Source of the DNA: Escherichia phage LF82-9
Direction: 5' to 3' (one strand)
Sequence record: PV660452
DNA length: 64,000 nucleotides
Position 1 is the stretch's first letter. Every line of letters starts with the position of its first letter. Below the pieces are notes generated by a model. The model was given only the letters and a program-made list of their open reading frames with translations, did not search any database and had not been told where the DNA came from. The position numbers and the translations under genes were made by a program. Of the stretch, positions 33,361-49,406 are shown piece after piece.

Positions 33361-33390
33361 AAAAAGCCCCAACCTTTCGGAAGGGGCTTT
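33361..33390 (-). terminator. conserved terminator hairpin, copy 1 of 4
   Basis: AGCCCC..CCGAAAGG..GGGGCT then T6 on minus strand. Confidence 0.5.
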
Positions 33391-33392
33391 GA

Positions 33393-33950
33393 TTAGTTTT
33401 TGTAATATCGTAAAGGGTTGATATGGAATGAAAGCATTGCGCGTGGAATAGGACGTCTCAAAAGACTCTTAAGTTTCCAACCACAGTAAACACGCAGATA
33501 AAATGTAATACCACCAACCTTAAGATAAGGTATAGCAGCGAATAATCCCCATGCAGACTCGTTCCAAACTAAAAGATATCCATGATGTGCTGGGTCAGGA
33601 GATCCTGATTTAGTTTCGGCGTTGCCTTTATAGTGCCATTTTGATGAAGCTTCGCGACCTAAAACATGATACGAAAAATTATATGCTTTGTTGCGCCATA
33701 ACCAAGCTACGCGTTGAGCATATTTACCTATAACAGGAATTTTACGTATTTTAGACCAACGTTCAACATGGCCACGGTCACCATCGATAGGATTATCGTA
33801 AGTCATCATCCAGTCAAAGCCATAAGGTAGTTTACCGGTTTTTTCACTATGGAATGGAACTACAAATGGTGCTAGAATAATTGCTAAAATCGCTGCGATC
33901 CAATCTATAGGAACAAGAACAACCCAACTTACATATTTTAAAAATTTCAT
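33393..33950 (-). CDS. membrane protein
   Basis: N-terminal hydrophobic helix; 185 aa. Confidence 0.5.
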   Translation of the reverse strand: MKFLKYVSWVVLVPIDWIAAILAIILAPFVVPFHSEKTGKLPYGFDWMMTYDNPIDGDRGHVERWSKIRKIPVIGKYAQRVAWLWRNKAYNFSYHVLGREASSKWHYKGNAETKSGSPDPAHHGYLLVWNESAWGLFAAIPYLKVGGITFYLRVYCGWKLKSLLRRPIPRAMLSFHINPLRYYKN

Positions 33951-33974
33951 ATATCCTCTCTTAGTTTACAAGGA

Positions 33975-33982
33975 TATTTATA
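33975..33982 (-). promoter_or_regulatory. late promoter TATAAATA
   Basis: Exact TATAAATA on minus strand about 25 nt upstream of ATG at 33950. Confidence 0.45.
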
Positions 33983-33987
33983 CAAAA

Positions 33988-34011
33988 AGCCCCAACCTTT
34001 CGGAAGGGGCT
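33988..34011 (-). terminator. conserved terminator hairpin, copy 2 of 4
   Basis: Same hairpin sequence as 33365..33388. Confidence 0.45.
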
Positions 34012-34017
34012 AGTAAA

Positions 34018-34320
34018 TTAGATAGATGTAGGCTCTAATTTTATTTTCATGAACTCGGCAAATTGTCTGGCGGTTTTTATGCCTTGTTCATGACATTCAA
34101 ATGCATCATCACAGGGGCTATTTTTGTAATGCTTTGCCATATACTTATAGAATTTTTCAGAGTTCTCGACATTTTGAATTTCAAACAAAGTATATACGTT
34201 TTTAATCCCTGATTCCATAAAGTTATCAAAGTATGGGTCAATATGTGCAGTACCAACGATAGGAGTTGTTGCTGCAAAAAACCCCAGCATCGCCATGACA
34301 GCTATCGCTCTTAAGGCCAT
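34018..34320 (-). CDS. secreted/periplasmic protein (signal peptide)
   Basis: MALRAIAVMAMLGFFAATTPIVGTA signal-like N-terminus. Confidence 0.5.
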   Translation of the reverse strand: MALRAIAVMAMLGFFAATTPIVGTAHIDPYFDNFMESGIKNVYTLFEIQNVENSEKFYKYMAKHYKNSPCDDAFECHEQGIKTARQFAEFMKIKLEPTSI

Positions 34321-34332
34321 ATAGGCCTCCTG

Positions 34333-34545
34333 TTAATTTTGGCCAGTATTTATTTTTCGCCTTTGGACGGCCTTAACATCTGTGAGGTATTTTTCCAGCT
34401 TGCGCTTGCGTGTATAATCAGCTTTAGAACCAGTTTGACGGATATCCTCGTTTAAATGAGAAATAGAATGTCCTAATTCTCTTCGGATTTCATCCAATTG
34501 GGTTACAGTAAGATTACGAAGTTGTCTTTCGTTTAATTGCTGCAT
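34333..34545 (-). CDS. hypothetical protein
   Basis: 70-aa ORF. Confidence 0.4.
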
Positions 34546-34572
34546 ATATACCTCTTGGTTAGATATTAGTAT

Positions 34573-35154
34573 TTATAACAACCCTGTCAAATCATTCCAA
34601 TGCTTCCGGCATAATGACACATATCTATCGGTATCACCAATTTCAATTTGACTGCCATCTGTAATTGGAAGTCCGTCTTCCGTGACTCTAGCTACCATTG
34701 TGGCCTTTTTACCACAATGACAGACACCTTTAAGTTCAACAAGCTTATCGGCAATAGCCATTAATGCTTGAGAACCTTCAAATAGATTACCTTTAAAATC
34801 TGTTCGTAGTCCATATGCCATTACCGGCACATTGTATACGTCAACAATACGACTAAGTTGATACACCTTTTCAGTAGTTAAGAACTGAGCTTCGTCAACA
34901 AATACGCAGTGAATATCCTTTTGTGCTGCAGCCCATTTATAGAATTCAAAGATATCCATGTCTTTTGTAATTATATTGGCATCCTGACGAATACCAATAC
35001 GAGAGACTATTTCACCTTTTGAATTACGAGTATCAATAGCCGGTTTAAGAACTAATACACCCATGCCACGTTCTTTATAGTTATGTGCGGCAGTAAGTAA
35101 TGAAGCAGACTTACCAGCGTTCATAGCGGCATAGGTAAAAATTAAACTAGCCAT
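34573..35154 (-). CDS. tk: thymidine kinase
   Basis: P-loop AMNAGKS, Zn-binding CHCGK..C; 193 aa as T4 Tk. Confidence 0.92.
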   Translation of the reverse strand: MASLIFTYAAMNAGKSASLLTAAHNYKERGMGVLVLKPAIDTRNSKGEIVSRIGIRQDANIITKDMDIFEFYKWAAAQKDIHCVFVDEAQFLTTEKVYQLSRIVDVYNVPVMAYGLRTDFKGNLFEGSQALMAIADKLVELKGVCHCGKKATMVARVTEDGLPITDGSQIEIGDTDRYVSLCRKHWNDLTGLL

Positions 35155-35344
35155 AAGAGTCCTTAGTTAAATTTTCTAAATATGTTTCTAAATCATTTTC
35201 AGCTTTATTGATAGATTTTACTAATTCGTAGTATGTTTCGGCATCTCCATATTCAGAAGATATTTCAAAAGACAAATCCTTTTCTAAACTAATAATTTCA
35301 CCAACTAAAAATAATATTTCGTTCTTTTGTTCGCGAGTAATCAT
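35147..35344 (-). CDS. hypothetical protein
   Basis: 65-aa ORF. Confidence 0.4.
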   Translation of the reverse strand: MITREQKNEILFLVGEIISLEKDLSFEISSEYGDAETYYELVKSINKAENDLETYLENLTKDSYG

Positions 35345-35532
35345 AATGAATTTATATAATCAATAAGTTCTTGCTCTTTATCGTCAAAATCTTTACACAG
35401 TTCTTCGTATTCGTCAGTATTAAAAGGACCGCATTCATTACAAACTTTTTCCAATTCGCTATTTTTATCCATAACTTCGTGGATAAGAGAAAAGAGTTTG
35501 TCTTTTTGTTCTTTACTTAAACTCATAACCAT
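35341..35532 (-). CDS. hypothetical protein
   Basis: 63-aa ORF. Confidence 0.4.
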   Translation of the reverse strand: MVMSLSKEQKDKLFSLIHEVMDKNSELEKVCNECGPFNTDEYEELCKDFDDKEQELIDYINSL

Positions 35533-35750
35533 GTCACCTTTAAACAGTATTCTTCTACATGCTGTTTACGACCTTTCTTATCAATAAAGGTATATTCAAC
35601 GAATGTTCCAATGTAGTCTTTATCGACATCATGTGGACTATTAATTGGACATTTAGTACGACAAATGCGTTCCCATTGACGAATAATTACTGCTTTATTT
35701 TTAGGATCAAACGGATGTGGGTAATGCACATTCATAATAATGGTTCCCAA
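35523..35750 (-). CDS. hypothetical protein
   Basis: 75-aa ORF. Confidence 0.4.
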   Translation of the reverse strand: MGTIIMNVHYPHPFDPKNKAVIIRQWERICRTKCPINSPHDVDKDYIGTFVEYTFIDKKGRKQHVEEYCLKVTWL

Positions 35751-36229
35751 TCAACAATCACAATTTCTAGTTTAGTGGAATATGTATCAAGAATTTCTTC
35801 AATGATATCCCAGTTTCCACCACCTATACCTGCACCAATTCTTGGCATGTAAATCACAGGCTTTGCTATCTTATTCTTTCCGAATTTATTTAATTCTATT
35901 ATACAATTCATTAAAGCAGAGTACTCAAAATTAGGTCCGGGCTCAAACTGTGTATAAAGATTAAAGCAATAAGCTTTATGGGTCTTAAAATATTTTTCAT
36001 AAACCGAATAGGAACCGAGTTTAGACTCGTCTCCGAATTCGGTTTGAAGTTTATCGGCTTCTAAAATTTTTGGATAAGCCTTTGCTAATTGTCCTGCTAC
36101 ACCAGCGCCCATTGTATGAAAACAATTGCACCCATGAGCAATATTATTACCTTTAGAAAACAGGGCGACAATATCGCCCTTGATATAGTTTTTAATCACT
36201 TGCTGCAAGTCCTCTAGTATAAGAGTCAA
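35732..36229 (-). CDS. macro-domain-like protein (ADP-ribose binding/processing); start uncertain (TTG at 36229 or GTG at 36199)
   Basis: IAHGCNCFHTMGAGVAGQLAKAYP and PRIGAGIGGGNW resemble macro-domain motifs. Confidence 0.5.
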   Translation of the reverse strand: MTLILEDLQQVIKNYIKGDIVALFSKGNNIAHGCNCFHTMGAGVAGQLAKAYPKILEADKLQTEFGDESKLGSYSVYEKYFKTHKAYCFNLYTQFEPGPNFEYSALMNCIIELNKFGKNKIAKPVIYMPRIGAGIGGGNWDIIEEILDTYSTKLEIVIVDWEPLL

Positions 36230-36539
36230 CTAGACGGTCCACCATAGAATTGCATGCTGCCTTATCTTTAGGTTCCGCCACCGAGCATTCTAATATTTGC
36301 CATTTTTTATAGTATCTTTTAATTAAGGTAGACGCCTTGAACCTACTAGACGCCCCATCTTTTTCTCCGTCTTTATATGCATATAACAATTTTTGTGAAA
36401 AATCTACTTTACACTCTTGACTTTTACCACAATAATCAGACGCCGTTCTGTTTGTATACTCCGTTACATCAGTATATGTAGTATTAGCAAGAGCGTTAAA
36501 TGAAACCAAGCCAACTATTAAAGCCAACATTTTGGTCAT
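36192..36539 (-). CDS. periplasmic protein (signal peptide)
   Basis: MTKMLALIVGLVSFNALA signal peptide. Confidence 0.5.
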   Translation of the reverse strand: MTKMLALIVGLVSFNALANTTYTDVTEYTNRTASDYCGKSQECKVDFSQKLLYAYKDGEKDGASSRFKASTLIKRYYKKWQILECSVAEPKDKAACNSMVDRLVDSYTRGLAASD

Positions 36540-37078
36540 TCTTTTATTTCCAGTAGTTTATTTGATTTAAGGTAATTAGCCTTTTCTAGGACTTCAGAAG
36601 CATATTTACTTCCAGCACTTGTCTTCCATCCAGCATTATATGAGGATATGGCTTTCCTTATATCCCCGTTATGTATATTTAACCAATAAGAAAATTCGAT
36701 ATAAGCCCATCTTGCTGAATTAGACCGCTTAGATAGCATTTTCTTAATTTGGGCATCAGTCATATTATAACCAAGCTGGTTAATTCTTGCCCTCATTGTT
36801 GGTAGATAATTTTGGAACATTCCATACGCATGGTGACCTTTCTTATCTTTAAGATTAATACCGGCAGATGATTCCTGCCATAGTATTGCGGCCATTATGT
36901 ATCCAAGTCCTTTCTTATGCATATTTTCATGCGTTTTAAATTTTCCATCCTTAGAAAACTGTTCCCCAAACTGATAAGCATAATTCAAGTTATCGAGTTG
37001 GACATTACTAAAAGTATGCTCGGAGCTATGTGCTGATAACGAAAGAGCAAATAGACCAGCGAGTAGTGCTTTTCTCAT
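36536..37078 (-). CDS. secreted lytic transglycosylase-like protein
   Basis: Signal peptide plus WQESSAG...GMFQ resembling family 1 lytic transglycosylase catalytic motif. Confidence 0.55.
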   Translation of the reverse strand: MRKALLAGLFALSLSAHSSEHTFSNVQLDNLNYAYQFGEQFSKDGKFKTHENMHKKGLGYIMAAILWQESSAGINLKDKKGHHAYGMFQNYLPTMRARINQLGYNMTDAQIKKMLSKRSNSARWAYIEFSYWLNIHNGDIRKAISSYNAGWKTSAGSKYASEVLEKANYLKSNKLLEIKE

Positions 37079-37086
37079 GTTTACCT

Positions 37087-37545
37087 CTAGATTTTAATCA
37101 CTGCTTTAGAAGCTTTTCCTGGTAGTCGTTTACTGTTAATAATAGCCATTCTGCATTGAAGAGTCTTCATTTTGAATGCTGGATTTTCGCGACAAACTGT
37201 AAGTCCTAACCAAAGATTTCCATCAGTTATTTCTAAACGGCCTGGGCGATATTCGACACCTTCGACAAAATCTTCATCAACATCTGGACGTGCCGGCATT
37301 GATAAAAATTCTGCAACTTCTTTAGCATGATTTTTTACTTTATGAAATAATTCAAAAACGTAATTCTCATCTATTTCTCTCTGGATGGCACGATCTAAGA
37401 GATGTTGAGAATACTTGATATGAAAGCCTGGTAGTCCAAGAGACTTTGCAGCATCTTTTATACCGGCATTTATTTTGCGGAACTCCGTTTCAAAGATTCG
37501 ACGGAGTTTATTACGGCGGATAAAAACTTCCGAATTGATAGTCAT
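37087..37545 (-). CDS. regB: endoribonuclease RegB
   Basis: MTINSEVFIRRNKLRR.. close to T4 RegB; ATG at 37545 with GAGGAG SD. Confidence 0.9.
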   Translation of the reverse strand: MTINSEVFIRRNKLRRIFETEFRKINAGIKDAAKSLGLPGFHIKYSQHLLDRAIQREIDENYVFELFHKVKNHAKEVAEFLSMPARPDVDEDFVEGVEYRPGRLEITDGNLWLGLTVCRENPAFKMKTLQCRMAIINSKRLPGKASKAVIKI

Positions 37546-37564
37546 TTTGATTTCTCCTCTAGTT

Positions 37565-37602
37565 GACAAGTCTATAGTAACACAACTAGAGGAGAAGTAA
37601 AC
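37565..37602 (-). promoter_or_regulatory. early promoter/stem-loop cassette upstream of regB
   Basis: GTTTACT N17 then -10 region with inverted repeat. Confidence 0.4.
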
Positions 37603-37901
37603 TACTCTTTGAAAGGAATTAACTTTTTAACTGCTTTAGATACTTCGTCACGAACCTGATGGAAGTTCTTGAGCTGTTCAAGGCGTTGTTCGTAATACGC
37701 AATCTCATCTTCTTCAAGACAATCGTCAGCGTCTTCTTTCAGATATGCCTTGTACTCATTAAAGAGGGCCCATAGGCGGTTCTCAAAGTCATCAAGGCTT
37801 TGAATTTTCTTGTGCTTCGGAACAAGGCCAAAAGGATTGCTTTCAGTTATGCGTCTAGATGCTTCATAATGAGTTCCAAAGCCTGATAGGATTTGAGCCA
37901 T
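37602..37901 (-). CDS. hypothetical protein (vs region)
   Basis: 99-aa ORF. Confidence 0.45.
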
Positions 37902-38167
37902 TAGTATTTTTCCTCAGGTCGAAATACTGCACGACAGGCCCACATGCTGGCTTCTTTTAGATGTTGCTTAGCATACTTAAGAGCCTGTACTGCATCCATA
38001 TCTTCTTTGGTTTGTTGCTCTGTTTCATTTTCTTTCAAGATATATGCTTCTTCAATCAGAGCATCAAACAACAATCCAAGACGGACTTCTGCATCTTTAA
38101 TAGCGTTCACTTTACCGATTTTATCGTCGGTATGCGGCTTGTAGCCTTTGATGTCTTCAATCGACAT
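37901..38167 (-). CDS. hypothetical protein (vs region), ATG with GAGGAAA SD
   Basis: [20 protein letters not shown]... Confidence 0.4.
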
Positions 38168-38381
38168 AAGGAATTTCCTCATCGGTGACAAGGTCATATT
38201 CGACCAATTGGATAGGCTCGTTAATACCATATCCACGTACAGTGATATCGGTTGTCGGATATTTTCCAGTAATATCACCCATTCTAAATGCTTCAGTGAA
38301 TGATTGCTCACCTGAGCAACTAAACCAGGCGGCAAAACATTTTAAAACATCTTCAGACCCTTCTATAATCAATTTAGCCAT
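38157..38381 (-). CDS. hypothetical protein
   Basis: 74-aa ORF; ATG overlaps stop of GrcA-like gene. Confidence 0.45.
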   Translation of the reverse strand: MAKLIIEGSEDVLKCFAAWFSCSGEQSFTEAFRMGDITGKYPTTDITVRGYGINEPIQLVEYDLVTDEEIPYVD

Positions 38382-38743
38382 TATAGACTCTCAGTAAAGG
38401 TACGAGCGATAACGTCGCGCTGCTGTTCCGGAGTCAGAGAGTTAAAGCGAACTGCATAACCGGATACACGAATGGTCAGCTGAGGATATTTTTCCGGATG
38501 CTTAACTGCATCTTCCAGAGTTTCACGACGCAGAACGTTAACGTTCAGGTGTTGACCACCTTCAATTTTAACTTTAGGTTGATGTTCAATTTCAATTTCA
38601 CGGGCATGTAAACCGTAGAAAATTTCCGGGTCTACAATAGCGTCTTCTTTAAAAGTCTTAGAGACGATAATCCGGGCTTGAGTACCATCTTCAAAATAAA
38701 TAGTGCCTTTATGTACACCTTCAAGAATTTGATATGCTTTCAT
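38381..38743 (-). CDS. autonomous glycyl radical cofactor (GrcA/YfiD-like; T4 Y06I-like)
   Basis: C-terminal half near-identical to E. coli GrcA incl. glycyl-radical motif RVSGYAV. Confidence 0.85.
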
Positions 38744-38749
38744 ATAACC

Positions 38750-39058
38750 TCAATTAGAAAATAAATTTATCCAAGTTTTTTCTTTAATCAAAAATGGGTC
38801 GGAATTAAACGCCATTAAACTTTGAGTGATTAATCCCTTAAACGGCCCATCAATAAATTCCATTTTGAAATGCGGAATACTAGTCATCAACCGTGCATTA
38901 GGAGCAGTACAAAGAACCTGCTGCCCCGCGAAAGGACCTTTAGTCAAACTGTATCGTTTAGGTTTAAAATGGTAAATCTCATAATTTTCTACAAGAGCCC
39001 TTTTATTGCATACTGGGCTGTTATAACAATATTCAAAAACTTCAATAGTGGTCATCAT
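38750..39058 (-). CDS. hypothetical protein
   Basis: 102-aa ORF. Confidence 0.45.
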   Translation of the reverse strand: MMTTIEVFEYCYNSPVCNKRALVENYEIYHFKPKRYSLTKGPFAGQQVLCTAPNARLMTSIPHFKMEFIDGPFKGLITQSLMAFNSDPFLIKEKTWINLFSN

Positions 39059-39595
39059 TGCATTCCAATCACAAAAAATTGAGGACGAGCATTACCGCCG
39101 ATGCAATATTTGCTTTTGCAACAGTGTTGGACTGTTTTAATATGGACATTGTAAATCTTATCCATATCAGGAGCTTTAATAGGCTCGTCAATTATGTACA
39201 GAATACGAGAAAGCGTTAATCCACGGAATTTAGAACCTTCATTGCCAATAAAACTACGGACAGAATCGGTAAATAAACGGAATCGAATATCATCGCTAGA
39301 ATAACGAGAAAATTCTTTTTTTAATGTTGCCAGCAGAAATTTTAGCATAGGCTGAAGTATTAGAAAGAACAATAACTGTTCCACCATCATACAGCCAATT
39401 AGCAGCAAAGTTAGTCACAGCAATTGATTTACCTGATTGTCGGCCGCCGTCTAAACGAAGTGTACAGTACTGCTTGAGTACGTCTTCAAACGGTGGGATA
39501 TAACCGTTCTTACAAATTTCTTCTACTCTAGCATCAGAATGGTGTGTAAAAGCATTCATCAGGGATAGATAAGGTCCAGTTAAAAATGTTCTCAT
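39055..39595 (-). pseudogene. P-loop NTPase gene split by a frameshift at a T7 homopolymer (39316..39322)
   Basis: N-part carries Walker A GGRQSGKS, C-part Walker B LYIIDEP; removing one T fuses both frames (..AGNIKK|EFSRYSSDD..). Confidence 0.55.
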
Positions 39596-39672
39596 TTAGT
39601 TTCTCTTTTAGGTTGGGCCATTCCGTGGCGCATGAATTGTCCATTTCTGTATTTACCCCTCTAAGTAATTAT

Positions 39673-39706
39673 GAATATACTATCACAATTCTAGGAGAAA
39701 GTAAAC
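39673..39706 (-). promoter_or_regulatory. early promoter/stem-loop cassette
   Basis: GTTTACT N17 TAGTAT. Confidence 0.4.
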
Positions 39707-39708
39707 TG

Positions 39709-40011
39709 TTATTTACCTTTAATTACTTTAGCTGCTTCGATAGCCGCTTGCTGAAGGTCATCCATAGACATACCGAATTTAGAAGCAAAGTTATCAATTT
39801 TCTTTTCGACAGCATTCAAAGGCTTGGCCTGTTTACCTTCATTAGCGCCAGGAAGAGCGAGAATACGCTCTTTGTCAATATAAAGGCTTACAAGTTTCTT
39901 ACGGTCTTTATCGGACAAATCATGAAATGAATGGGCCTTTTTATTTATAGCGGCTTCTAATTTACCTGCACTCACTCGCGCTTCAGTAATAAATTCTTGA
40001 TATGTTTTCAT
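39709..40011 (-). CDS. internal protein (IP) with capsid-targeting N-terminus
   Basis: N-terminus MKTYQEFITEA as in T4 IPI/II/III. Confidence 0.7.
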   Translation of the reverse strand: MKTYQEFITEARVSAGKLEAAINKKAHSFHDLSDKDRKKLVSLYIDKERILALPGANEGKQAKPLNAVEKKIDNFASKFGMSMDDLQQAAIEAAKVIKGK

Positions 40012-40075
40012 TTTTTGTTTCCTTGTTTGTTTTGATAGAGTAATTATACCATATTAATACTTAAGCGTAAACAAT

Positions 40076-40336
40076 TTAAGCTTTACCGCCAGAAATAATT
40101 CCGAAGTTGTTAAAATCGTATCCAATATCGTCAACATCTACTTTAGGATTTACTACAACATAAGCAATTTCACTACGTTTTGCATAGGTGTTGATTTCTT
40201 TACCATCGCCACCTAAGAAAGAATACCCATTACGTTTTAATGAGCCAAAGTCTTCGGCATCACCAATGAAAGCTTTAACTTTAAATTTAGGACCTTTGGC
40301 ATCTGCTTCAATGATAAATTCTTGATACATTTTCAT
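40076..40336 (-). CDS. internal protein-like with capsid-targeting N-terminus
   Basis: N-terminus MKMYQEFIIEA. Confidence 0.65.
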   Translation of the reverse strand: MKMYQEFIIEADAKGPKFKVKAFIGDAEDFGSLKRNGYSFLGGDGKEINTYAKRSEIAYVVVNPKVDVDDIGYDFNNFGIISGGKA

Positions 40337-40342
40337 TTTTCC

Positions 40343-40756
40343 TTAGTAAATTGATTTACCATAGTATTTGTACCAAGTAGGACGTTGAGCAATTTTTTCA
40401 TCTAAGCGTGCTTGACTTATCGCAACGGACGCTTCGGACGGGACATAATTATTACGAAATTCGGCAGGGATGTCGGAAATATCCTGGACTGTCGTGTCCT
40501 TGATTTTGAAACCACGTTTCAAGCATTCAGCGATTAGCTCGATTTGTCGTAAACGTAAAAATTCAAGTTTGTCGTAAAAGAATGTTACGTGACCTGTGCC
40601 TAAGATAAATGTTGGAGAGATTTTAAAATCCTTTACACGTTTACCGTTTTGGACATGTTTACGGACTGCACTAAATACGCGTGGTAATTCACGATACTCA
40701 GCCATAAGATGTTGATCGGTCAGTTCAGAAACAAGTGTTAAATTGATACGAGTCAT
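40343..40756 (-). CDS. denV: endonuclease V (pyrimidine dimer glycosylase DenV)
   Basis: [27 protein letters not shown].. near-identical to T4 DenV. Confidence 0.93.
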
Positions 40757-40774
40757 AATTTCCTCCAAGTAGTT

Positions 40775-40813
40775 GATGAATGTATAGTATCAAAACCCTT
40801 GGAGGAAGTAAAC
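40775..40813 (-). promoter_or_regulatory. early promoter/stem-loop cassette upstream of denV
   Basis: GTTTACT followed by hairpin and TA-rich -10. Confidence 0.4.
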
Positions 40814-40814
40814 A

Positions 40815-41096
40815 CTATTTTTCTGAAGCGCCTGAAATATATTTTTCAAGACGTTGTTTCATCAGCGAGCCGTTCTTAGCGATTTCTTCCGGTTTATCGC
40901 ACATACGTAACAAGGCTTCAAGCTTAGCGATATCGCTGGTACGTTCAAATTTGCGAGTATCTATCTTACTAGCAAGTTCAGAAATACGTGCTAATAGACT
41001 TTCGGCTTCAACCAAAGCTGCACCTAGCTTAGTTGCAAATGTGTCAGTAGCTTCGTTAAGAATAGATTCTGATAAAAATTCACTATATGTTTTCAT
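40815..41096 (-). CDS. internal protein-like with capsid-targeting N-terminus
   Basis: [11 protein letters not shown]... Confidence 0.55.
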
Positions 41097-42315: not shown

Positions 42316-42680
42316 TCGGTAATAAAACGTTCAACTTCGTTATTCTTGGCCTTTATCTTGTCTTTACGTTCCTGTAAACTACTTTTAACAAGATTAATAA
42401 TGATGCCTATAGTACCTCCACCAATTATACCACCAATTATACTTACGATAGTAGATGCCAATAAGATAGCGATAATATCTGGTATGGCAAAGGCACTTAC
42501 TTTAGTACTAAAAAACCATACCGACGGTACAAATATAATCCATCCTGTTATCCATTGGCACTTATTGAAAAACTTTTCAAGATCAGCTTGAGTTGTTCGT
42601 ATTACTTCATCGATAGGTTGATATCCATTAATGTATCTGTTCACGATAATACCTTCGTTGCCATCGTCTATATTAACCAA
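42297..42680 (-). CDS. membrane protein
   Basis: Gly-rich hydrophobic segment IVSIIGGIIGGGTIGIIINL. Confidence 0.45.
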   Translation of the reverse strand: MVNIDDGNEGIIVNRYINGYQPIDEVIRTTQADLEKFFNKCQWITGWIIFVPSVWFFSTKVSAFAIPDIIAILLASTIVSIIGGIIGGGTIGIIINLVKSSLQERKDKIKAKNNEVERFITECRNLR

Positions 42681-42696
42681 TATGTTTTGTTAATCA

Positions 42697-43383
42697 TTAC
42701 CAGCCTTCCATAGGGAATTCCAGATAAACTTGGGCATTGACGCGAATTTCATTGGTAATCTTTTTAACTCGGTCTGTATTACGAGATACACGTCCGAACC
42801 AACGCCATCCATTACTAATTGCACGAGAACCAGTGTGCCATGTTTGCCAATCAAACTGAAGAAGAGTACGGTCTGGAGCTTCCCATTTCTCTAGTTCACC
42901 TTTTTCAATTTTTTCGAGGACTTCTTTGTGCCATTGGCGATAGATAAGTTCGCCATCAGGAATCTGACTGAACTCTGCAGTTCCTGTTGCAAAATGAGTA
43001 GGACACACGTCAGCGTTAACAAGACCAAGAATATGTTCAGACAAATAGCGAGGATTGTCATAGTCAGGTTGTCCTGCAGTAATAAAATGTTGACCAACCG
43101 GAATATCCGGGCGTGGTACATCATCATGGTGATAACCTGGGATAGCAGGGTACCAACCAGGCATCAGCATGTGGACTCGTGAATCAAATACAACCTGGTC
43201 GGTGTTCCAATCATCCGGCAAGTTCATGATGAAGCTGCGAGTAATAGGACCGCCGTTATTATAAGCAAATTCTAAACTACAGTTGAAGAACATAGGCTCG
43301 TTCTTGATTTTATCATTAGAAATACCGCCGGCAAAACCACCTACTGCACGAGCTTGACTATTAAACACTTTAGAACTATTCAT
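42697..43383 (-). CDS. hypothetical protein
   Basis: 228-aa ORF. Confidence 0.5.
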   Translation of the reverse strand: MNSSKVFNSQARAVGGFAGGISNDKIKNEPMFFNCSLEFAYNNGGPITRSFIMNLPDDWNTDQVVFDSRVHMLMPGWYPAIPGYHHDDVPRPDIPVGQHFITAGQPDYDNPRYLSEHILGLVNADVCPTHFATGTAEFSQIPDGELIYRQWHKEVLEKIEKGELEKWEAPDRTLLQFDWQTWHTGSRAISNGWRWFGRVSRNTDRVKKITNEIRVNAQVYLEFPMEGW

Positions 43384-43384
43384 A

Positions 43385-43690
43385 TTATTTTCCTCGACAT
43401 TCTTTAATGAAATTTTCTAGATTGGTAGATTCAATAGCTTTTTTACGAGCTTCTGCATGTTCTTCTTCAGACAATTTACATTTATAATTAACCCAGACGT
43501 TATGGTCAAAACTAGTCGTGGCATATAATAACAAAGCCCCGACGAATAATAAAAATGGCGATAAGAATACAAAACCAGGAACACCATCCATATCGTAAGC
43601 CTTTTGTAATACTGCAACAGAAAGAGCTGCGTAAAAAAGTGATACAAATATTGTTAAAAGACCAATTCGGTTGGTTTCTGTTAATTTCAT
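43385..43690 (-). CDS. membrane protein
   Basis: Two hydrophobic helices. Confidence 0.45.
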   Translation of the reverse strand: MKLTETNRIGLLTIFVSLFYAALSVAVLQKAYDMDGVPGFVFLSPFLLFVGALLLYATTSFDHNVWVNYKCKLSEEEHAEARKKAIESTNLENFIKECRGK

Positions 43691-43710
43691 AATATTCTCC
43701 TCATGTTTTA

Positions 43711-43748
43711 ATAGGACTACTATAACATAGTCCTATAATTGTGTAAAC
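43711..43748 (-). promoter_or_regulatory. early promoter/stem-loop cassette
   Basis: GTTTACA N17 TATAGT with inverted repeat ATAGGACTA/TAGTCCTAT. Confidence 0.45.
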
Positions 43749-43760
43749 AGTTTTGTGAAA

Positions 43761-44717
43761 TTATTTGAAAGGTTTTACCATATGAAAGTTTTGTTTGAAA
43801 CGCTTGACGTAATCGTCGTGTCCTAAGCTTTGGTACATACTTACTACTTTGCTATAATTTTCCCAAGCGAACTCACGGAACCATCCTGATGTGATTGATG
43901 TACAGACCTTTTCAAGGGCCATCATAAAACTATCACGTGGATGGATTTCAAAGTTATTAGGAATCTGAGAACGTTCTAACGCTAGTACACATGATTCTTC
44001 GTATACGCCGGCCAATTTGACCATTTCTGGTAATGATTCGAACTTCTCGCGTGAGGTCATGACTTCAGAACCATCTTTCATATAAAATGTATACGCTGGA
44101 CGGTCCGTTAGTGCAATGGCTTCGTGAATAGTATCATGGTCATACGTATAGATGTCATCTTTAAAGAATGCGCTTTTAGAAGTGTCAAGAACTGGGTGAG
44201 CATAGTTCAAGGTTTCTTTCTGGCGTTTCAGCATAATTTCATTAAGTTCATCGTTCAGTGTAACACCTTTACCACGAAGATACTGAATATGGTTCATAGT
44301 CTTTAAAAAGAATGGATTATTTTTCTTGAAACGATGGGACATCTTAATTGCAAGGCACATCTCAGGAGTTGCCCAGTAAAACCCGTTCAAACGGTCTTTA
44401 GTCAAATTTTTCTTGGCGTATTTTAAAAGGTCATAAGAAGACGTGAAATCTTCAGGAGTGAGTTCACCGACTAATTCACGGACATTAGTGATTGCCGGAA
44501 CAATATATGCTTCAAAATGAGTTTCGCGCCCATTATGGAAGCATTTGAAAACTTGGACATCAGGGTTATCTTGGTGAACATATACACCCATCATTTGATT
44601 TTTGAATGCATTCCAAGAACCTTGGTCCGCAATAAAGTCCCAATCACTATTTTTAATAGCGCTAGAATCAATAAGACCGTGATAGTGAAGTGCACGAGAA
44701 CCAATAACTAACATCAT
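43761..44717 (-). CDS. hypothetical protein
   Basis: 318-aa ORF. Confidence 0.5.
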   Translation of the reverse strand: MMLVIGSRALHYHGLIDSSAIKNSDWDFIADQGSWNAFKNQMMGVYVHQDNPDVQVFKCFHNGRETHFEAYIVPAITNVRELVGELTPEDFTSSYDLLKYAKKNLTKDRLNGFYWATPEMCLAIKMSHRFKKNNPFFLKTMNHIQYLRGKGVTLNDELNEIMLKRQKETLNYAHPVLDTSKSAFFKDDIYTYDHDTIHEAIALTDRPAYTFYMKDGSEVMTSREKFESLPEMVKLAGVYEESCVLALERSQIPNNFEIHPRDSFMMALEKVCTSITSGWFREFAWENYSKVVSMYQSLGHDDYVKRFKQNFHMVKPFK

Positions 44718-44745
44718 AATATTTTCCTCGGATTAATTCATTAAC

Positions 44746-44997
44746 TTAAATTTCACGACATGCGATATTATATTCATCCCAGAGGTCATCATGTGAAGCC
44801 TCTACCAATGGAACGATTGTACCGTTTATGTCTTCATTATAAGGGCAAATTGTACAGTGCGCATCTTCGAATCGGATGCCTTTGTGTTCAGATTTTTTAT
44901 AACGCATATCGAATATCTTTGCAAACTTTTCACGAGTAATGGTTTTACCAACCACTTTGGTTCCGATACTTTCGTAATAAATCATTGTGGACTCCAT
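44746..44997 (-). CDS. hypothetical protein
   Basis: 83-aa ORF. Confidence 0.45.
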   Translation of the reverse strand: MESTMIYYESIGTKVVGKTITREKFAKIFDMRYKKSEHKGIRFEDAHCTICPYNEDINGTIVPLVEASHDDLWDEYNIACREI

Positions 44998-45004
44998 TTG
45001 TTTT

Positions 45005-45043
45005 GATAGGACTACTATAACATAGCCCTATCTTGTTGTAAAC
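45005..45043 (-). promoter_or_regulatory. early promoter/stem-loop cassette
   Basis: GTTTACA N17 TATAGT, sequence nearly identical to 43711 cassette. Confidence 0.45.
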
Positions 45044-45047
45044 TGTT

Positions 45048-45245
45048 TTAGCAAGAATAACTAGATGATACCCAGCCTTGAACAGTGATACTATTGTGGG
45101 ATAATGAGATCGCGTCCTGGAGATTCAGACCTGCGTTATCTTCAATCCATAATGTAACTTCTTCGCGTTCTTCTGTTGCAATTTGGAACAGGTTTTCCAG
45201 AGCAGCTACTGCCGTACGTACAGCACAATCTAATTCACGAGACAT
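45048..45245 (-). CDS. small protein, member of tandem paralog triplet (C-terminal WVSSSxxC)
   Basis: Ends QGWVSSSYSC; identical TAAGGAATCAT-ATG junction to neighbours. Confidence 0.5.
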   Translation of the reverse strand: MSRELDCAVRTAVAALENLFQIATEEREEVTLWIEDNAGLNLQDAISLSHNSITVQGWVSSSYSC

Positions 45246-45254
45246 ATGATTTCC

Positions 45255-45527
45255 TTAGCATTCCATAGAAGATGCAACCCAACCACCTGATTCGAGGCTG
45301 GTGTAATATGAGTGTTGGTTGACAGTGGCCCAATTCGGATTGCCTTGTTCGGTATAATGCTCAAGTTCTTTTTTCAAGAATCCAGGAGAATAATACGTTC
45401 CACCCATACCATAAGCTGGATACAAGTCGAATGTTGTGTTTTGTTTATCAGCAATTTCTTTGGCAGCCTCAATAGCTGCATAGATTTTTGCTACAGCTTC
45501 AGCCAGTTCGGTTTGTTCTTTAGACAT
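45255..45527 (-). CDS. small protein, member of tandem paralog triplet
   Basis: Ends GGWVASSMEC. Confidence 0.5.
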   Translation of the reverse strand: MSKEQTELAEAVAKIYAAIEAAKEIADKQNTTFDLYPAYGMGGTYYSPGFLKKELEHYTEQGNPNWATVNQHSYYTSLESGGWVASSMEC

Positions 45528-45536
45528 AATGATTCC

Positions 45537-45842
45537 TTAGCACAACGCAGAAGACGAAACCCAAGCACCTTCAGTAATAACGTAACCATTACCTTCACGC
45601 TTAACATCGCCACCATTATTTTCAATTTCATCTTTCATCCACTGGGATACGATTTCACCCTTAGGATAATAAGTACGACCGCTACCATAATCACCTACAG
45701 AAAACGATACAGCGTATTGGTCTGCAATCTTTGTAGCTTCTTCTTCGATACGTTCAGCTTGATTCAGAAGTTTATAAATTGCATCTGAAGCGGATTTGGC
45801 ATCATTAAACTCTGGTACTTTAATTTCAATAATCTTACTCAT
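45537..45842 (-). CDS. small protein, member of tandem paralog triplet
   Basis: Ends GAWVSSSALC. Confidence 0.5.
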   Translation of the reverse strand: MSKIIEIKVPEFNDAKSASDAIYKLLNQAERIEEEATKIADQYAVSFSVGDYGSGRTYYPKGEIVSQWMKDEIENNGGDVKREGNGYVITEGAWVSSSALC

Positions 45843-46198
45843 TTTCTACATTCCTTAATAAAGTTTTCTATTGTTTCATTTTCACGTCTAGCTAGGAGTT
45901 CATTATAACTAATCATTTGAGAAGCGTAAACCTTTTTATTTTTCTTGTTATGGTTTATAAAATCGTAGTAAAAATAGACTACAGTACAAAATGATGCGAT
46001 GGATGCAAAGGCTTGAGTATATCGTAAGTCCTGCCATTGGTCTGTGAATCCACCGGTGTTCCCTATAAATCCTAACACAACTCCGTCAATAAGAAATCCA
46101 ACTAATCCAAAGGCAAATCCCATGCCAATACTCATAATAAAAATTAGAATGTTCTCACCGAGAGAAGGCCGTACGGTTAAGAGTTGAGGCTTTTGCAT
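45839..46198 (-). CDS. membrane protein
   Basis: Hydrophobic helices. Confidence 0.45.
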   Translation of the reverse strand: MQKPQLLTVRPSLGENILIFIMSIGMGFAFGLVGFLIDGVVLGFIGNTGGFTDQWQDLRYTQAFASIASFCTVVYFYYDFINHNKKNKKVYASQMISYNELLARRENETIENFIKECRK

Positions 46199-46572
46199 CT
46201 TATTTCCTTAACGAATTCCATAGCTTCTTCATATTCATACTTTTTAACAGCTTCAACATACTGAGCTTGGGCTTTTGCGCACTGAACTTTCCACTCGCGA
46301 ACTCGAGCTCTGTGATGACGGCCTTGGTGCCAATATCCTGCCCAATTAATAGGCATTAATAAAAACGGTACAATAAGTGGTGCGACGAACATTAATGAAA
46401 ACGCTGCATCAGACGTTATAACTTTATTGGAATCTAAAATAGCTCCTATAATCATAAAGATTAAAAATGCTAAAGCTAAAATAGGGCCAAATAGTACTTC
46501 GTTTGGGATTAATTTACGTTTGTATTCGTATGCCCAGGGCTTAATTGGCATGTACAGGGTTGGCTTTGACAT
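46177..46572 (-). CDS. membrane protein (start uncertain)
   Basis: Hydrophobic helices; internal ATGs at 46572/46551. Confidence 0.4.
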   Translation of the reverse strand: MSKPTLYMPIKPWAYEYKRKLIPNEVLFGPILALAFLIFMIIGAILDSNKVITSDAAFSLMFVAPLIVPFLLMPINWAGYWHQGRHHRARVREWKVQCAKAQAQYVEAVKKYEYEEAMEFVKEIRCKSLNS

Positions 46573-47137
46573 ATTCTCTACATTCCATAATAAATTGCTC
46601 AAGGATTAAATTGTTAGTGAAATTAGGACTAACAACCATAGTTTCATAAAGCGCATCAATAGCACTTAAAGCATCAACTCTTTTAAGCAAAGGCTTGCCT
46701 TCATACATAGTTTCAGAATCGATGATTAACGTAAAGTAATATTTTTTATTATCGACTAGAACTTCTGTATCGATATAAAACATATTAGACCTCAGAAGCT
46801 TATCTCTAAAACCATAATAATCTTCTGAACGTTCGCTGATATATTCCCATTCAGTGTTTAAACAACAAACAGACCATGTAGGAGCAACGAAATCAGTGAA
46901 TCTAATATCATGGTCTGCAACTAGTTTAGCAATAGCTCCGATATCATGAATCATAATACCTGGGGCTAATAAAGATTTTCGGCGATTTGCGTATTCAGTT
47001 GTCTCATAAGAAGCTGACCAGTACCATTTACGTCCAGTTGCAACATATCGTAATGAATCAACTAAAGACGTAGGTGGATTTACCTTATCTCGGAACTCTT
47101 CGAACATTGAGTCAATATCATTATTTTGGTTTCGCAT
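46541..47137 (-). CDS. hypothetical protein (ATG with AAAGGAG SD)
   Basis: MRNQNNDIDSMFEEF...; track start is TTG. Confidence 0.5.
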   Translation of the reverse strand: MRNQNNDIDSMFEEFRDKVNPPTSLVDSLRYVATGRKWYWSASYETTEYANRRKSLLAPGIMIHDIGAIAKLVADHDIRFTDFVAPTWSVCCLNTEWEYISERSEDYYGFRDKLLRSNMFYIDTEVLVDNKKYYFTLIIDSETMYEGKPLLKRVDALSAIDALYETMVVSPNFTNNLILEQFIMECREYVKANPVHAN

Positions 47138-47160
47138 GTTAACTCCTTTATTATCCAAAA

Positions 47161-47178
47161 GGAGGACCGGAGTCCTCC
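47161..47178 (-). terminator. intrinsic terminator hairpin
   Basis: GGAGGAC-TCCG-GTCCTCC followed by TTTT on minus strand. Confidence 0.45.
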
Positions 47179-47186
47179 GTATTATT

Positions 47187-47780
47187 TTATTTCAAAGAGT
47201 TAATATATTCTTGTACATCAGCAGAAGTGGTTTCGACACCGGCTGGAGTACCATTGAACGTTTCAACACGAGTCAGAGTGTCTTCGATATCAACCTTAGT
47301 CAGTGCAGCGATTTCAATTACATCATCGGCCGTAGAGATACCAAGGGCATTGGCTGCTCGAGTTTCACGAATGTATTCGAGTTTGATTGCCAGGTTCTGA
47401 CGAGCATCGTCAAGTTCAACCACCTTACGAGCAATTTCAATTCGCATAGCGGCATACCCGTCAGCTTTTGTATTAAGTTGTTCGGCAGTTCGACGATACA
47501 GAAGACCAAGCTTAGCATGCATGGTAACATCTTGTCCTTCAGCCAGGAGCTTACGAATTTCACGTTCCTTAGAAGCGGCTTGCTTGTTCTTTTCATTAAC
47601 AAGTTCGCGAATACGTTTTTCTTCATTAATAGATTTAACAGAAGCCGTTTTTAGTTCTTTGATCTGGGTAATCAACTTATCTGCAGCTGCGTTATACTGT
47701 TCTTCGACAGTCAGATTTTTAGCCATAGCAGTACCCAGTTTAGTGCGGATAAATTCAACAAGTTTCTTCAGTGTGTTCAT
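47187..47780 (-). CDS. coiled-coil protein (PspA-like appearance, unverified)
   Basis: [10 protein letters not shown]...; long heptad-like helical sequence. Confidence 0.5.
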
Positions 47781-47803
47781 ATTATTACCTTTCAATTGGT
47801 GGT

Positions 47804-47850
47804 TTATTATCCAATGAGAGCATTATACTCTGCTCTCAAGAGTTTGTAAA
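47804..47850 (-). promoter_or_regulatory. early promoter with -10 inside a hairpin (copy B of 45-bp repeat)
   Basis: TTTACAAACTCTTGAGAGCAGAGTATAATGCTCTCATTGGATAATAAA. Confidence 0.5.
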
Positions 47851-48078
47851 TTATTTTTTAATCAAATTGACATAAAACTTGGCGTCTTCGGGGTGCATGC
47901 CTTCGCAGTATTCTTCAACCATGAAATTCTTAACAGCTTCATAAGGACCACTCAGATTAAGCTCAGTTGTCCAAAACTTGGAATCTTGGACTGAATCGAT
48001 ACGAACTTCAGGATGACGATTGCGAATAACTTCTTCGGTGTATTCATAATCAACGACATCAATACTAACTTTAGCCAT
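47851..48078 (-). CDS. hypothetical protein
   Basis: 75-aa ORF. Confidence 0.45.
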   Translation of the reverse strand: MAKVSIDVVDYEYTEEVIRNRHPEVRIDSVQDSKFWTTELNLSGPYEAVKNFMVEEYCEGMHPEDAKFYVNLIKK

Positions 48079-48103
48079 TTTGTTTCTCCTCTTGATTTGA
48101 TGT

Positions 48104-48137
48104 GATTACTATAACATAAACGTACTTAGATGTAAAT
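48104..48137 (-). promoter_or_regulatory. early promoter cassette
   Basis: ATTTACA N17 TATAGT. Confidence 0.4.
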
Positions 48138-48290
48138 TATTTCAACGTCACCTTTAGCGGCTTTATAACCTTCAGCCCAAGATACAACAGAGTTTTTATC
48201 TGAGGATTCAAATTCAGGCATTGGACTTTCACCAATATTCACACAGTATGTTTCTTCATTTTCATCGAACCAAATAATTAAAGTAGTCAT
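48126..48290 (-). CDS. small acidic protein (54 aa), not in ORF track
   Basis: Hand translation MTTLIIWFDENEETYCVNIGESPMPEFESSDKNSVVSWAEGYKAAKGDVEIIYI; GGAGTAAACAAA SD. Confidence 0.4.
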   Translation of the reverse strand: MTTLIIWFDENEETYCVNIGESPMPEFESSDKNSVVSWAEGYKAAKGDVEIIYI

Positions 48291-48311
48291 TTTGTTTACT
48301 CCTTTGTAGTT

Positions 48312-48350
48312 GATAAGTCTATAGTATCACCATCCTTGGTGCTTGTACAC
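48312..48350 (-). promoter_or_regulatory. early promoter/stem-loop cassette
   Basis: TGTACA-type -35 with hairpin CACCAAGGATGGTG and -10 TACTAT. Confidence 0.35.
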
Positions 48351-48352
48351 AA

Positions 48353-48616
48353 TTATTTCATATTATTGAAATATTCTTCTGCGATTTCGTCGTTATCATG
48401 GTAAACTTTAGAAGACAGTTTAACATAACCTTCTGCCGTGAACATGTTAATCACAACCTTTACAGTATACCACTGACCGTCTTCATTACCCATTACTGCG
48501 TAAGTTTCAAACATCGGATGATCAGGACCAATAACTTTAATATCATTCACTGTACGACCGAAATCTTCTGAAACACATTTCATAAAGAAGTTGAACAGTT
48601 CGCCGTAATTATCCAT
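48353..48616 (-). CDS. hypothetical protein (ATG with GGAG SD)
   Basis: MDNYGELFNFFMKCV... Confidence 0.45.
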   Translation of the reverse strand: MDNYGELFNFFMKCVSEDFGRTVNDIKVIGPDHPMFETYAVMGNEDGQWYTVKVVINMFTAEGYVKLSSKVYHDNDEIAEEYFNNMK

Positions 48617-48650
48617 TTCATTCTCCAAATTGTTTTCTGTATCAGTAGTT

Positions 48651-48689
48651 GATAGTTGTATAGTACCATGGAAGAACAGGGATGTAAAC
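48651..48689 (-). promoter_or_regulatory. early promoter/stem-loop cassette
   Basis: GTTTACA N17 TACTAT. Confidence 0.45.
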
Positions 48690-48827
48690 AGTTTTGTGAA
48701 AAAATTTTTTAAAAAGTTTTAGGGAATTCTAGGGTCAGGAGGGACAATTAAAAGGTAGGATAATATATTATAAAGGGTATAAACTAAATGATGCCCAGAG
48801 AGGCCCGGAAAGGCCTAGATACCAAAA

Positions 48828-48851
48828 AGCCCCAACCTTTCGGCTGGGGCT
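48828..48851 (-). terminator. conserved terminator hairpin, copy 3 of 4
   Basis: AGCCCCAGCC-GAAA-GGTTGGGGCT then T5. Confidence 0.5.
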
Positions 48852-48858
48852 AAGAATG

Positions 48859-49332
48859 TTATATGATTTGTTTAGCAGACCAAATGCGGTCTTTAATAAT
48901 TTTTTGGATGTCTTCAACATATTCAAGAGAGTGAACATGTGGGTTATCTTTGAAACTATAAGCACGAGCTAGCTTTTGGCCTTCAGTTTTGATTATCAAA
49001 AGTTCTTTAAGAATTGCTTCATACCTAGAGATAATTCCTTTAGCAATATTTTTTTCTTGTGCTGCTTTAGGGTCAGCCTTAGGAGCAGGTTTACCTGAAG
49101 CCTTTGCAAAAGCAGCTCCAGTAGCAACTAAACTTTTCCAAGCCATACTAACTGCATTCCCTGTAAATCCTTCGGCTTTCATATCACGAGCAAATTGGAA
49201 TCGTGATTCATCGGAAGCATCTTTATAGGAATATTTACCCGCGGCAATGGCAGCTTTTGCAACAGCTTGAATTTCAGTGCTAGATGCTTCATTTAACACC
49301 GCTTCATTTAAAAATTGAGCATATGATTTCAT
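48859..49332 (-). CDS. internal protein-like with capsid-targeting N-terminus
   Basis: N-terminus MKSYAQFLNEA; Ala/Lys-rich. Confidence 0.55.
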   Translation of the reverse strand: MKSYAQFLNEAVLNEASSTEIQAVAKAAIAAGKYSYKDASDESRFQFARDMKAEGFTGNAVSMAWKSLVATGAAFAKASGKPAPKADPKAAQEKNIAKGIISRYEAILKELLIIKTEGQKLARAYSFKDNPHVHSLEYVEDIQKIIKDRIWSAKQII

Positions 49333-49368
49333 CTTATTTCCTGTTTTAATTCGTGGTTTTAATATACT

Positions 49369-49376
49369 TATTTATA
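49369..49376 (-). promoter_or_regulatory. late promoter TATAAATA
   Basis: Exact TATAAATA on minus strand 37 nt upstream of ATG at 49332. Confidence 0.45.
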
Positions 49377-49382
49377 CTAAAA

Positions 49383-49406
49383 AGCCCCAACCTTTCGGTC
49401 GGGGCT
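49383..49406 (-). terminator. conserved terminator hairpin, copy 4 of 4
   Basis: AGCCCCGACC-GAAA-GGTTGGGGCT then T5. Confidence 0.5.

Follow-up and report, generated by a model that had tools for sequence, protein, structure and literature searches.

Two genes enclosed by pairs of a terminator-like hairpin

The sequence analyzed here is a 64-kb window (64,000 nucleotides, sequence record PV660452) from Escherichia phage LF82-9, and the element in question is a short hairpin that a first-pass annotation had reported four times on the minus strand. The genome is that of a T4-like phage with gene order and orientation as in T4, in which a Mosigvirus backbone (Tevenvirinae) carries a ~4.5-kb Tequatrovirus patch. 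A search of both strands of the window with the pattern AGCCCCRRCCGAAAGGTTGGGGCT, allowing up to three mismatches, returned exactly the four copies that had been reported, at the same coordinates and only on the minus strand, and 100 dinucleotide-preserving shuffles gave no match. The layout is AGCCCC-NN-CC-GAAA-GGTTGGGGCT followed by a T-run, with 4-5 further T after each copy and 5-6 T in total directly past the stem. The variable dinucleotide had been given as (A/G)(A/G), which is correct for copy 3 (AG) and copy 4 (GA), but copies 1 and 2 carry TT, and this results in a tandem U.U mismatch inside the stem. A repeat finder placed all four copies in one family (D7) in which similarity ends at the hairpin and T-run. 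They are arranged as two pairs with one gene enclosed by each pair, and we refer to the enclosed genes as cargo A and cargo B and to the corresponding promoter-gene-terminator units as cassettes A and B.

Cassette A lies at the rI site, where the order in the direction of transcription is rI, copy 2, the octamer TATAAATA, the cargo A open reading frame (ORF), copy 1, an early-promoter-type repeat and a mobD.3-like ORF. The upstream neighbor rI (34018-34320, minus strand) is the lysis inhibition/antiholin gene, and 6 nt past its stop is copy 2 (33988-34011, or 33984-34011 with its T-run; minus strand), a predicted terminator with a folding energy of -16.0 kcal/mol (z = -3.1). A predicted T4-type late promoter box, TATAAATA, occupies 33975-33982 on the minus strand, 1 nt past the copy 2 T-run; the ATG of cargo A lies 24 nt downstream of the box. 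Cargo A is a 185-aa ORF (33393-33950, minus strand) assigned to Pfam DUF7338 (PF24027) and phrog_2143, and its product has the hydrophobic N-terminus of a membrane protein. Copy 1 follows it (33365-33388 plus five T at 33360-33364, minus strand; -17.9 kcal/mol, z = -3.7), again as a predicted terminator, and has the same 24-mer as copy 2, AGCCCCTTCCGAAAGGTTGGGGCT, with identity between the two extending over 28 nt. Just downstream of copy 1 is the early-promoter-type repeat GTTTAC ... TATAGT (33317-33353, minus strand), a member of family D10 that is repeated window-wide.

Cassette B lies at the rnaC site, in the order tRNA cluster, an ORF with a T5orf172 domain, rnaD, rnaC, copy 4, TATAAATA, the cargo B ORF, copy 3, an early promoter region and an e.8-like ORF. 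Homologs of the T4 small stable RNAs rnaD (~49602-49720) and rnaC (~49457-49595), both on the minus strand, were placed by transferring the T4 annotation through a 97.7% alignment, to within 1 nt on either side. Copy 4 (AGCCCCGACCGAAAGGTTGGGGCT; 49383-49406, or 49379-49406 with its T-run; minus strand; -24.9 kcal/mol, z = -4.7) is the ortholog of the single hairpin found downstream of rnaC in T4. The second predicted late promoter box, TATAAATA, is at 49369-49376 on the minus strand, 2 nt past the copy 4 T-run and 36 nt upstream of the ATG of cargo B, a 157-aa ORF (48859-49332, minus strand; phrog_2280) that has no Pfam match and begins with the leader MKSYAQFLNEA... Copy 3 (AGCCCCAGCCGAAAGGTTGGGGCT; 48828-48851, or 48824-48851 with its T-run; minus strand; -20.8 kcal/mol, z = -4.6) is a predicted terminator 7 nt past the cargo B stop. 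The earlier description of every hairpin as lying directly after a gene stop is therefore accurate for copies 1, 2 and 3, which are 4, 6 and 7 nt past the stops of cargo A, rI and cargo B, respectively, but not for copy 4, which follows a small RNA gene.

Predicted termination and late initiation at the hairpins

We found that the 46-nt RNA contexts of all four copies form the expected hairpin, with folding energies of -16.0 to -24.9 kcal/mol and z scores of -3.1 to -4.7. The stems are GC-rich and consist of 8-10 pairs capped by a GAAA loop of the GNRA type; plus-strand folds are weaker and are without a U-tract or comparable T-run. Every gene adjoining the hairpins is on the minus strand, and the copies are co-oriented at the 3′ ends of transcription units. 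A built-in terminator scan of 32-51.5 kb ranked copy 4 first and copy 3 second but did not list copies 1 and 2, because the TT/TT mismatch breaks their stem, while a fold-based scan of the whole window placed all four copies among ~9 clean terminator-like hairpins on the minus strand.

A small set of 11 distinct hairpin variants, picked by hand, was compared for covariation. Compensatory double changes occurred at pairs 2-23 and 3-22, pairs 7-18 and 8-17 alternated between A-U and G.U, and a C-to-U change at pair 6-19 yielded U.G, with the 3′ arm nearly invariant. In this set 90.9% of cells were paired, compared with 25-67% when the register was slid, suggesting that pairing has been maintained in evolution by selection on RNA structure. 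Since G.U pairs are tolerated, selection would appear to act on the minus-strand RNA and not on a DNA cruciform. Several Tequatrovirus GenBank records annotate the same hairpin as a terminator, and the KAW1E185 record does so for both hairpins around cargo B. The terminator reading of the first-pass annotation is thus borne out at the sequence level by stem, GAAA loop, U-tract, 3′-end position, restriction to one strand, compensatory changes and existing annotations, and we conclude that the hairpins are most likely one-directional intrinsic (Rho-independent) terminators. A search of the accessible literature found no relevant published 3′-end map of T4 at this hairpin site, and PMC12685909 names rnaC/rnaD only in connection with an unrelated single-nucleotide polymorphism. 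Rfam at gathering thresholds gave nine tRNA matches in the whole window and no family over the hairpin or rnaC/rnaD.

A late promoter had been claimed within 40 nt of two of the hairpins, and the boxes prove to be far closer than that, only 1-2 nt past the T-runs of copies 2 and 4. Both sites have the features expected of a T4-type late promoter, namely a TATAAATA box suitably spaced upstream of the gene, with no -35 element, and no such box follows copies 1 and 3. The adjacency of hairpin and TATAAATA is conserved in nine related loci, with variable spacing. By a rough estimate, the chance of finding TATAAATA within 10 nt of two of the four hairpins would be ~6 × 10^-6.

Occupied and empty alleles at the rI and rnaC sites

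Comparison with related phages gave three independent pairs of occupied and empty alleles with junctions inside the terminator: the window against T4 and LF82-4, the window against Mizar, L007 and L069, and VR20 against VR25. Empty alleles were checked directly in six loci, and the remainder were assigned from coverage statistics. At the rnaC site, only one hairpin is present in T4, where it closes the tRNA region downstream of rnaC (species 1 RNA; T4 positions 70834-70857) and has the same 24-mer and T-run as copy 4. On its left this T4 hairpin is flanked by the sequence that adjoins copy 4, and on its right (TTTTTGGTATCTAAGCCTTTCC...) by the sequence that adjoins copy 3. When the window is aligned to T4 by blastn, the hairpin is precisely what the two aligned segments (48353-48853 and 49374-49726) have in common on T4. 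In T4 no gene lies between this hairpin and the e.8 promoter region, whereas the window interposes a late promoter, the 157-aa gene and a second hairpin copy, and it also has the two further copies that bracket the gene next to rI. LF82-4 has an empty rnaC site as well, with a single hairpin joining the outer flanks.

The same site in VR20 (L003) holds a different gene. Directly after the hairpin and TATAAATA is a DUF7338 gene 75.8% identical to cargo A, so that one gene family is found at both hairpin sites, and this insert ends in yet another terminator that is unlike the rnaC hairpin. VR25 (L008), a relative of VR20, has an empty rnaC site, and the sequence common to both ends of the VR20 insert relative to VR25 is GGGCTTTTTTATA. 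In LF82-1 the rnaC site carries a divergent 208-aa member of the cargo B family that ends in a different, UUCG-type terminator. At the rI site, Mizar, L007 and L069 are empty, with one hairpin after rI in which the left flank of copy 2 is joined to the right flank of copy 1; L007 has a GAAA loop in this hairpin, and Mizar and L069 have a TTAT loop. The hairpin copies, as direct repeats of 24-29 bp, therefore mark the exact boundaries of presence/absence polymorphisms of the cassettes.

Allele frequencies differ between the two sites. Cargo A is present at the rI site in ~22 Mosigvirus-like records (at least 95% identity), and the entire rI cassette region is covered by only 22 of 192 matching records. 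The cargo B family was found by tblastn in 511 records, and many Tequatroviruses carry cargo B between two hairpin copies. These frequencies suggest that a Mosigvirus sublineage acquired cargo A and that cargo B is old at the rnaC site and was lost in T4 and LF82-4.

A 31-nt blastn query with the hairpin matched 748 phage records in 1,276 places at E ≤ 0.01 and 996 phage records in 1,512 places at E ≤ 1. The family is present in 1-3 places per genome, essentially at two hot spots and nearly always in T4-like coliphages, and the four copies of LF82-9 are an upper extreme because both of its sites are occupied. The strict form CCGAAAGGTT, with mismatches included, is likewise concentrated in T4-like phages. 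A host origin of the hairpin was ruled out by the lack of any match to the 31-mer in 5,426 complete E. coli genomes. The state of the NN dinucleotide mostly tracks lineage across loci, Mosigvirus having TT at the rI site as well as at the rnaC site and Tequatrovirus having A/G forms. The window copies accordingly appear to be of two origins, copies 1 and 2 having the Mosigvirus TT form and copies 3 and 4 the Tequatrovirus AG/GA form, which would have come in on the 4.5-kb inter-genus recombinant patch.

Taken together, we consider it likely, with a probability of about 0.72, that the terminators confine the two enclosed genes to late expression and that, as direct repeats, they are the break-and-join points of cassette gain and loss. 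The first-pass annotation had suggested a mobile or recombination-prone terminator module; the three allele pairs with junctions in the terminator favor the recombination-prone part of this suggestion, but the hairpin itself is static and it is the promoter-gene-terminator cassette that comes and goes. At the level of transcription, the upstream hairpin would stop the extended early and middle read-through transcripts that are characteristic of this region and come from rI or from the tRNA-rnaD-rnaC unit, the abutting late promoter would restart transcription only late in infection, and the downstream hairpin would prevent the late transcript from running into the early genes that follow; past copy 1, the early-promoter-type repeat would restart transcription into the mobD.3-like ORF. 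From the order hairpin, late promoter, gene, hairpin we infer a monocistronic, late-only mRNA of ~0.6 kb for each cassette. At the level of DNA, T4-type recombination and replication slippage act on short repeats, and either process may act on the hairpins, such that a cassette would be deleted between two copies to leave one hairpin, or would be inserted at a resident copy, possibly as an excised circle.

Several points weigh against this interpretation. Any promoter-gene-terminator unit inserted just past an existing terminator would look alike, whatever the mechanism, and the different downstream hairpin in VR20 and LF82-1 shows that a cassette can do without identical repeats. Whether each event was a gain or a loss is read only from allele frequencies, and termination and late initiation at these sites are predictions. 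The TATAAATA octamer is present eight times in the window, which is the chance expectation, so only its position and conservation carry significance. Finally, the general shape AGCCCC..CC....GG..GGGGCU with a U-tract is present in >120 unrelated viral contigs, so that convergence on a favored terminator design could explain some of the similarity.

The last point leads to an alternative in which look-alike terminators (GC stem, GNRA loop and U-tract) arose independently and have no role in rearrangement, the cassettes having entered beside terminators that were already there, through unrelated illegitimate insertions. We regard this as unlikely, although it would accommodate the >120 diverse viral contigs, which match a looser pattern (AGCCCCNNCCNNNNGGNNGGGGCTTTT) with the inner pairs and loop left free, as well as the exact 24-mer in unrelated contigs with either an Erf-like gene or a major capsid gene of another kind and the different terminators after the cargo in VR20 and LF82-1. 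It would not predict the 28-nt identity between copies 1 and 2, in which even the non-pairing TT/TT is shared, a feature that convergence on a perfect stem would not yield, nor that three allele pairs have the junction inside the shared terminator with nothing added or lost, nor that the NN state is mostly lineage-specific across different loci.

A mainly post-transcriptional role is highly improbable. The hairpins would then be 3′ stabilizers or processing signals, for example in maturation of the tRNA-rnaD-rnaC precursor, and the copies on mRNAs would borrow the stabilizing function. Copy 4 is ~50 nt past the mature 3′ end of rnaC in the T4 annotation, so the primary transcript must be trimmed, and stable GNRA-capped stems are known to shield RNA 3′ ends from exonucleases. 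Stabilization does not need a U-tract, the hallmark of intrinsic termination, however, and one is present on every copy and on nearly every homolog; such a role is also compatible with termination, as the two are not exclusive.

The least credible alternative is an active mobile element, with the hairpin as the end or recognition site of a repeat like a miniature inverted-repeat transposable element (MITE), as a homing-endonuclease target or as a site like integron attC on which a dedicated enzyme acts: copy 4 has a T5orf172/MUG113-domain gene (GIY-YIG-related; 49694-50248) 290 nt upstream of it, the SegB homing endonuclease moves the T-even tRNA region with co-conversion of its flanks (PMC2330249), and a protein targeting GGGG...CCCC stems was speculated upon by Arbiol et al. 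(PMC2839356), but with 1-3 copies per genome at essentially two loci in 748-996 phage records, no terminal inverted repeats beyond the hairpin, no target-site duplications at the junctions examined, no nuclease gene near the rI-site cassette and no integrase or transposase in the annotated neighborhood, nothing resembles the terminal inverted repeats, target-site duplication and many dispersed copies of a transposon or MITE. The transposon, MITE and integron readings were rejected on low copy number, seamless junctions and the lack of a recombinase.

We also considered whether the hairpin travels with its cargo, which was ruled out by the KP15 DUF7338 gene, which follows a different UUCG terminator and has no late box, by the location of the family in a Felixounavirus tRNA cluster and by the different cargo terminators in VR20 and LF82-1. 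A swap of GA and AG between the upstream and downstream copies, seen on comparing L016 with the window, was not used as evidence of reciprocal exchange, because A-U/G.U transitions at those two positions are near-neutral and could arise independently.

Known cassette systems, cargo genes and the Tequatrovirus-like patch

The closest precedent is provided by the promoter-early stem-loops (PeSLs) of phages RB49 and phi1, conserved promoter/stem-loop cassettes that were shown experimentally, mini-circles included, to mediate this type of insertion and deletion (Arbiol et al. 2010, PMC2839356). PeSLs likewise are G/C-rich terminator stem-loop elements that flank single non-essential ORFs, relatives have a single element, and homologous recombination between elements was proposed (PMC2839356). 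The arrangement of element, ORF and element opposite a single element in a close relative is found here in the three allele pairs. PeSLs differ in that each is a ~100-bp unit centered on a sigma70-like early promoter that contains or overlaps the stem-loop, and in their demonstrated mini-circles, whereas in the window conservation is confined to the 24-29-nt terminator. The composite ~100-bp promoter and stem-loop unit is absent; an 8-bp late box accompanies two of the four (copies 2 and 4), and next to copy 1 stands an early-type repeat that is unrelated. On this comparison, we do not classify the window elements as PeSLs.

Cassette B also resembles the cassettes of the T-even internal-protein (IP) loci, in that cargo B shares the IP leader (MKSYAQFLNEA compared with MKTYQEFIAEA) and forms a polymorphic single-gene cassette with conserved regulatory boundaries. 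As Repoila et al. 1994 are cited in PMC2839356, the IP-locus elements are T4 early promoters with weak AT-rich stem-loops and are described for two loci only; cassette B would be a third locus, from rnaC to e.8, with a strong GC-rich terminator as its boundary and a predicted late promoter. The lambdoid morons of Hendrix and colleagues, as discussed in PMC2839356, are similar in consisting of one accessory gene with its own promoter and terminator between resident genes, and cargo A is also moron-like in that unrelated phages have the same gene family, but morons are thought to be inserted without conserved flanks and often antisense, unlike the window cassettes, which have repeats of the resident terminator and the orientation of the surrounding genes.

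Deletions between short direct repeats in T4 are familiar from classical rII deletion work. As in those cases, loss of a cassette leaves a single copy of a short repeat, which at the VR20/VR25 junction is GGGCTTTTTTATA, but the earlier events arose in the laboratory and elsewhere in the genome, whereas the evidence here is natural variation among sequenced phages; GGGC/GCCC motifs at T4 deletion end points are attributed to Mosig et al. 1998 as cited in PMC2839356.

We conclude that the LF82-9 sites are an instance of the known shuffling of regulatory cassettes, as at PeSLs and internal-protein loci, and of unsurprising gain and loss of accessory genes. The analysis adds a precise definition of two cassette hot spots, a late-promoter variant of the linker idea and a candidate new internal protein. 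If the reading of the hairpins as late-gene boundaries and break-and-join points is correct, they provide a searchable 24-nt marker for hot spots of accessory-gene turnover downstream of rI and rnaC in T4-like coliphages, and the early-promoter cassette linker principle would extend to terminator/late-promoter junctions. Both sites would then look like natural safe harbors, where insertion between two hairpins and behind TATAAATA should insulate a foreign gene and restrict it to late expression. This would be useful in engineering therapeutic T4-like phages, although the hairpins, being direct repeats, predict that such inserts would be lost by precise deletion.

A bolder proposal is that the hairpin, U-tract and abutting late promoter form the linker of a dedicated Tevenvirinae late-gene cassette system, a counterpart of the PeSLs in which exchange between hairpins would release cassettes as small circles able to re-enter wherever a copy is already present. 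We regard this as doubtful. Were it true, strictly late control outside the two classical IP loci could be imposed on foreign genes, among them those for new injected internal proteins and DUF7338, which FelixO1-like phages also have.

Cargo B is labeled hypothetical in all database records. Its start, MKSYAQFLNEAVLNEASST, is close to the capsid-targeting leaders of annotated internal head proteins (window 40815-41096; T4 MKTYQEFIAEA), with 58% identity over 19 residues to an annotated internal head protein of the window, and the leader ends in a prohead-protease-type site (L/I-x-E), MKSYAQFLNE|A. The coding start of cargo B also falls in DNA repeat family D5 along with four IP genes. These likenesses suggest that cargo B probably encodes an internal (injected) protein not described before, at a locus other than the two classical IP loci, and we flag phrog_2280 as a candidate for this role.

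The DUF7338 family of cargo A is common to very different phages, among them Felixounavirus, Slopekvirus and YerA41. The gene lies in the middle of a tRNA gene cluster in Felixounavirus ESCO49 (L136, 701-1258) and right after the tRNA-rnaC cluster in VR20 (L003, 2934-3488), and the KP15 copy is at L135 701-1267. Database labels for the family include holin in some records and structural protein in YerA41.

Other hairpin loci show AAAA or TTAT loops. In KAW1E185 (L134) the hairpin after cargo B, at 14155-14178, is AGCCCCAACCTTTCGGTTGGGGCT, a perfect stem with a loop that is the reverse complement of GAAA; the center of the palindrome looks as if flipped, possibly by quasi-palindrome template switching. 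The exact 24-mer, including its TT/TT form, was also seen after a major-capsid-like gene in two metagenomic contigs and in contigs with an Erf-like recombinase gene or without recognizable T4 genes, once as two tandem hairpins (L006 2730-2753, L012 6962-6985, L010 9-76 and L011 941-964), and either convergence or horizontal spread could account for these outliers.

The mosaic background of the window is apparent from blastn comparisons. The 33-35 kb region is 100% identical to the Mosigvirus Escherichia phage LF82-4, and pairwise blastn against the Mosigvirus LF82-1 gave 99.4-99.7% identity up to ~45.9 kb and again from 52,785 on. In contrast, 48-50.4 kb is closest to Tequatrovirus teqskov (98.5%), and ~48.13-52.75 kb is 96.7-98.4% identical to teqskov, which is only 73-79% identical outside that stretch. 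This teqskov-like patch holds the tRNA cluster, rnaC/rnaD, cassette B and trna.2-4-like ORFs, and its junctions (48131-48358 and 52746-52785) are within the conserved early-promoter repeat families D1/D2/D3/D6/D9, which suggests inter-genus recombination at promoter linkers.

Within the patch, the T5orf172/MUG113-domain ORF (49694-50248, minus strand) encodes 184 aa, belongs to phrog_5032 and has weak homing-endonuclease matches. It sits between tRNA-Arg and rnaD, which are neighbors in T4, its last codons overlap the start of rnaD, and the heptamer ACCAAAT is present at both of its ends (50267-50273 and 49718-49724). It could possibly be a homing-type gene able to explain the imported patch, by analogy with the way in which SegB drives inheritance of the tRNA region in T4. 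Among the repeat families of the window, the largest consist of intergenic units of 40-60 nt between 23643 and 53156, for example 32859-32906, 43707-43754, 45002-45049, 48096-48143 and 53095-53142. They combine the T4 early-promoter-like GTTTAC ... TATAGT with the inverted repeat TAGGACTA ... TAGTCCTA and look like the PeSL-like or IP-locus regulatory cassettes of the literature.

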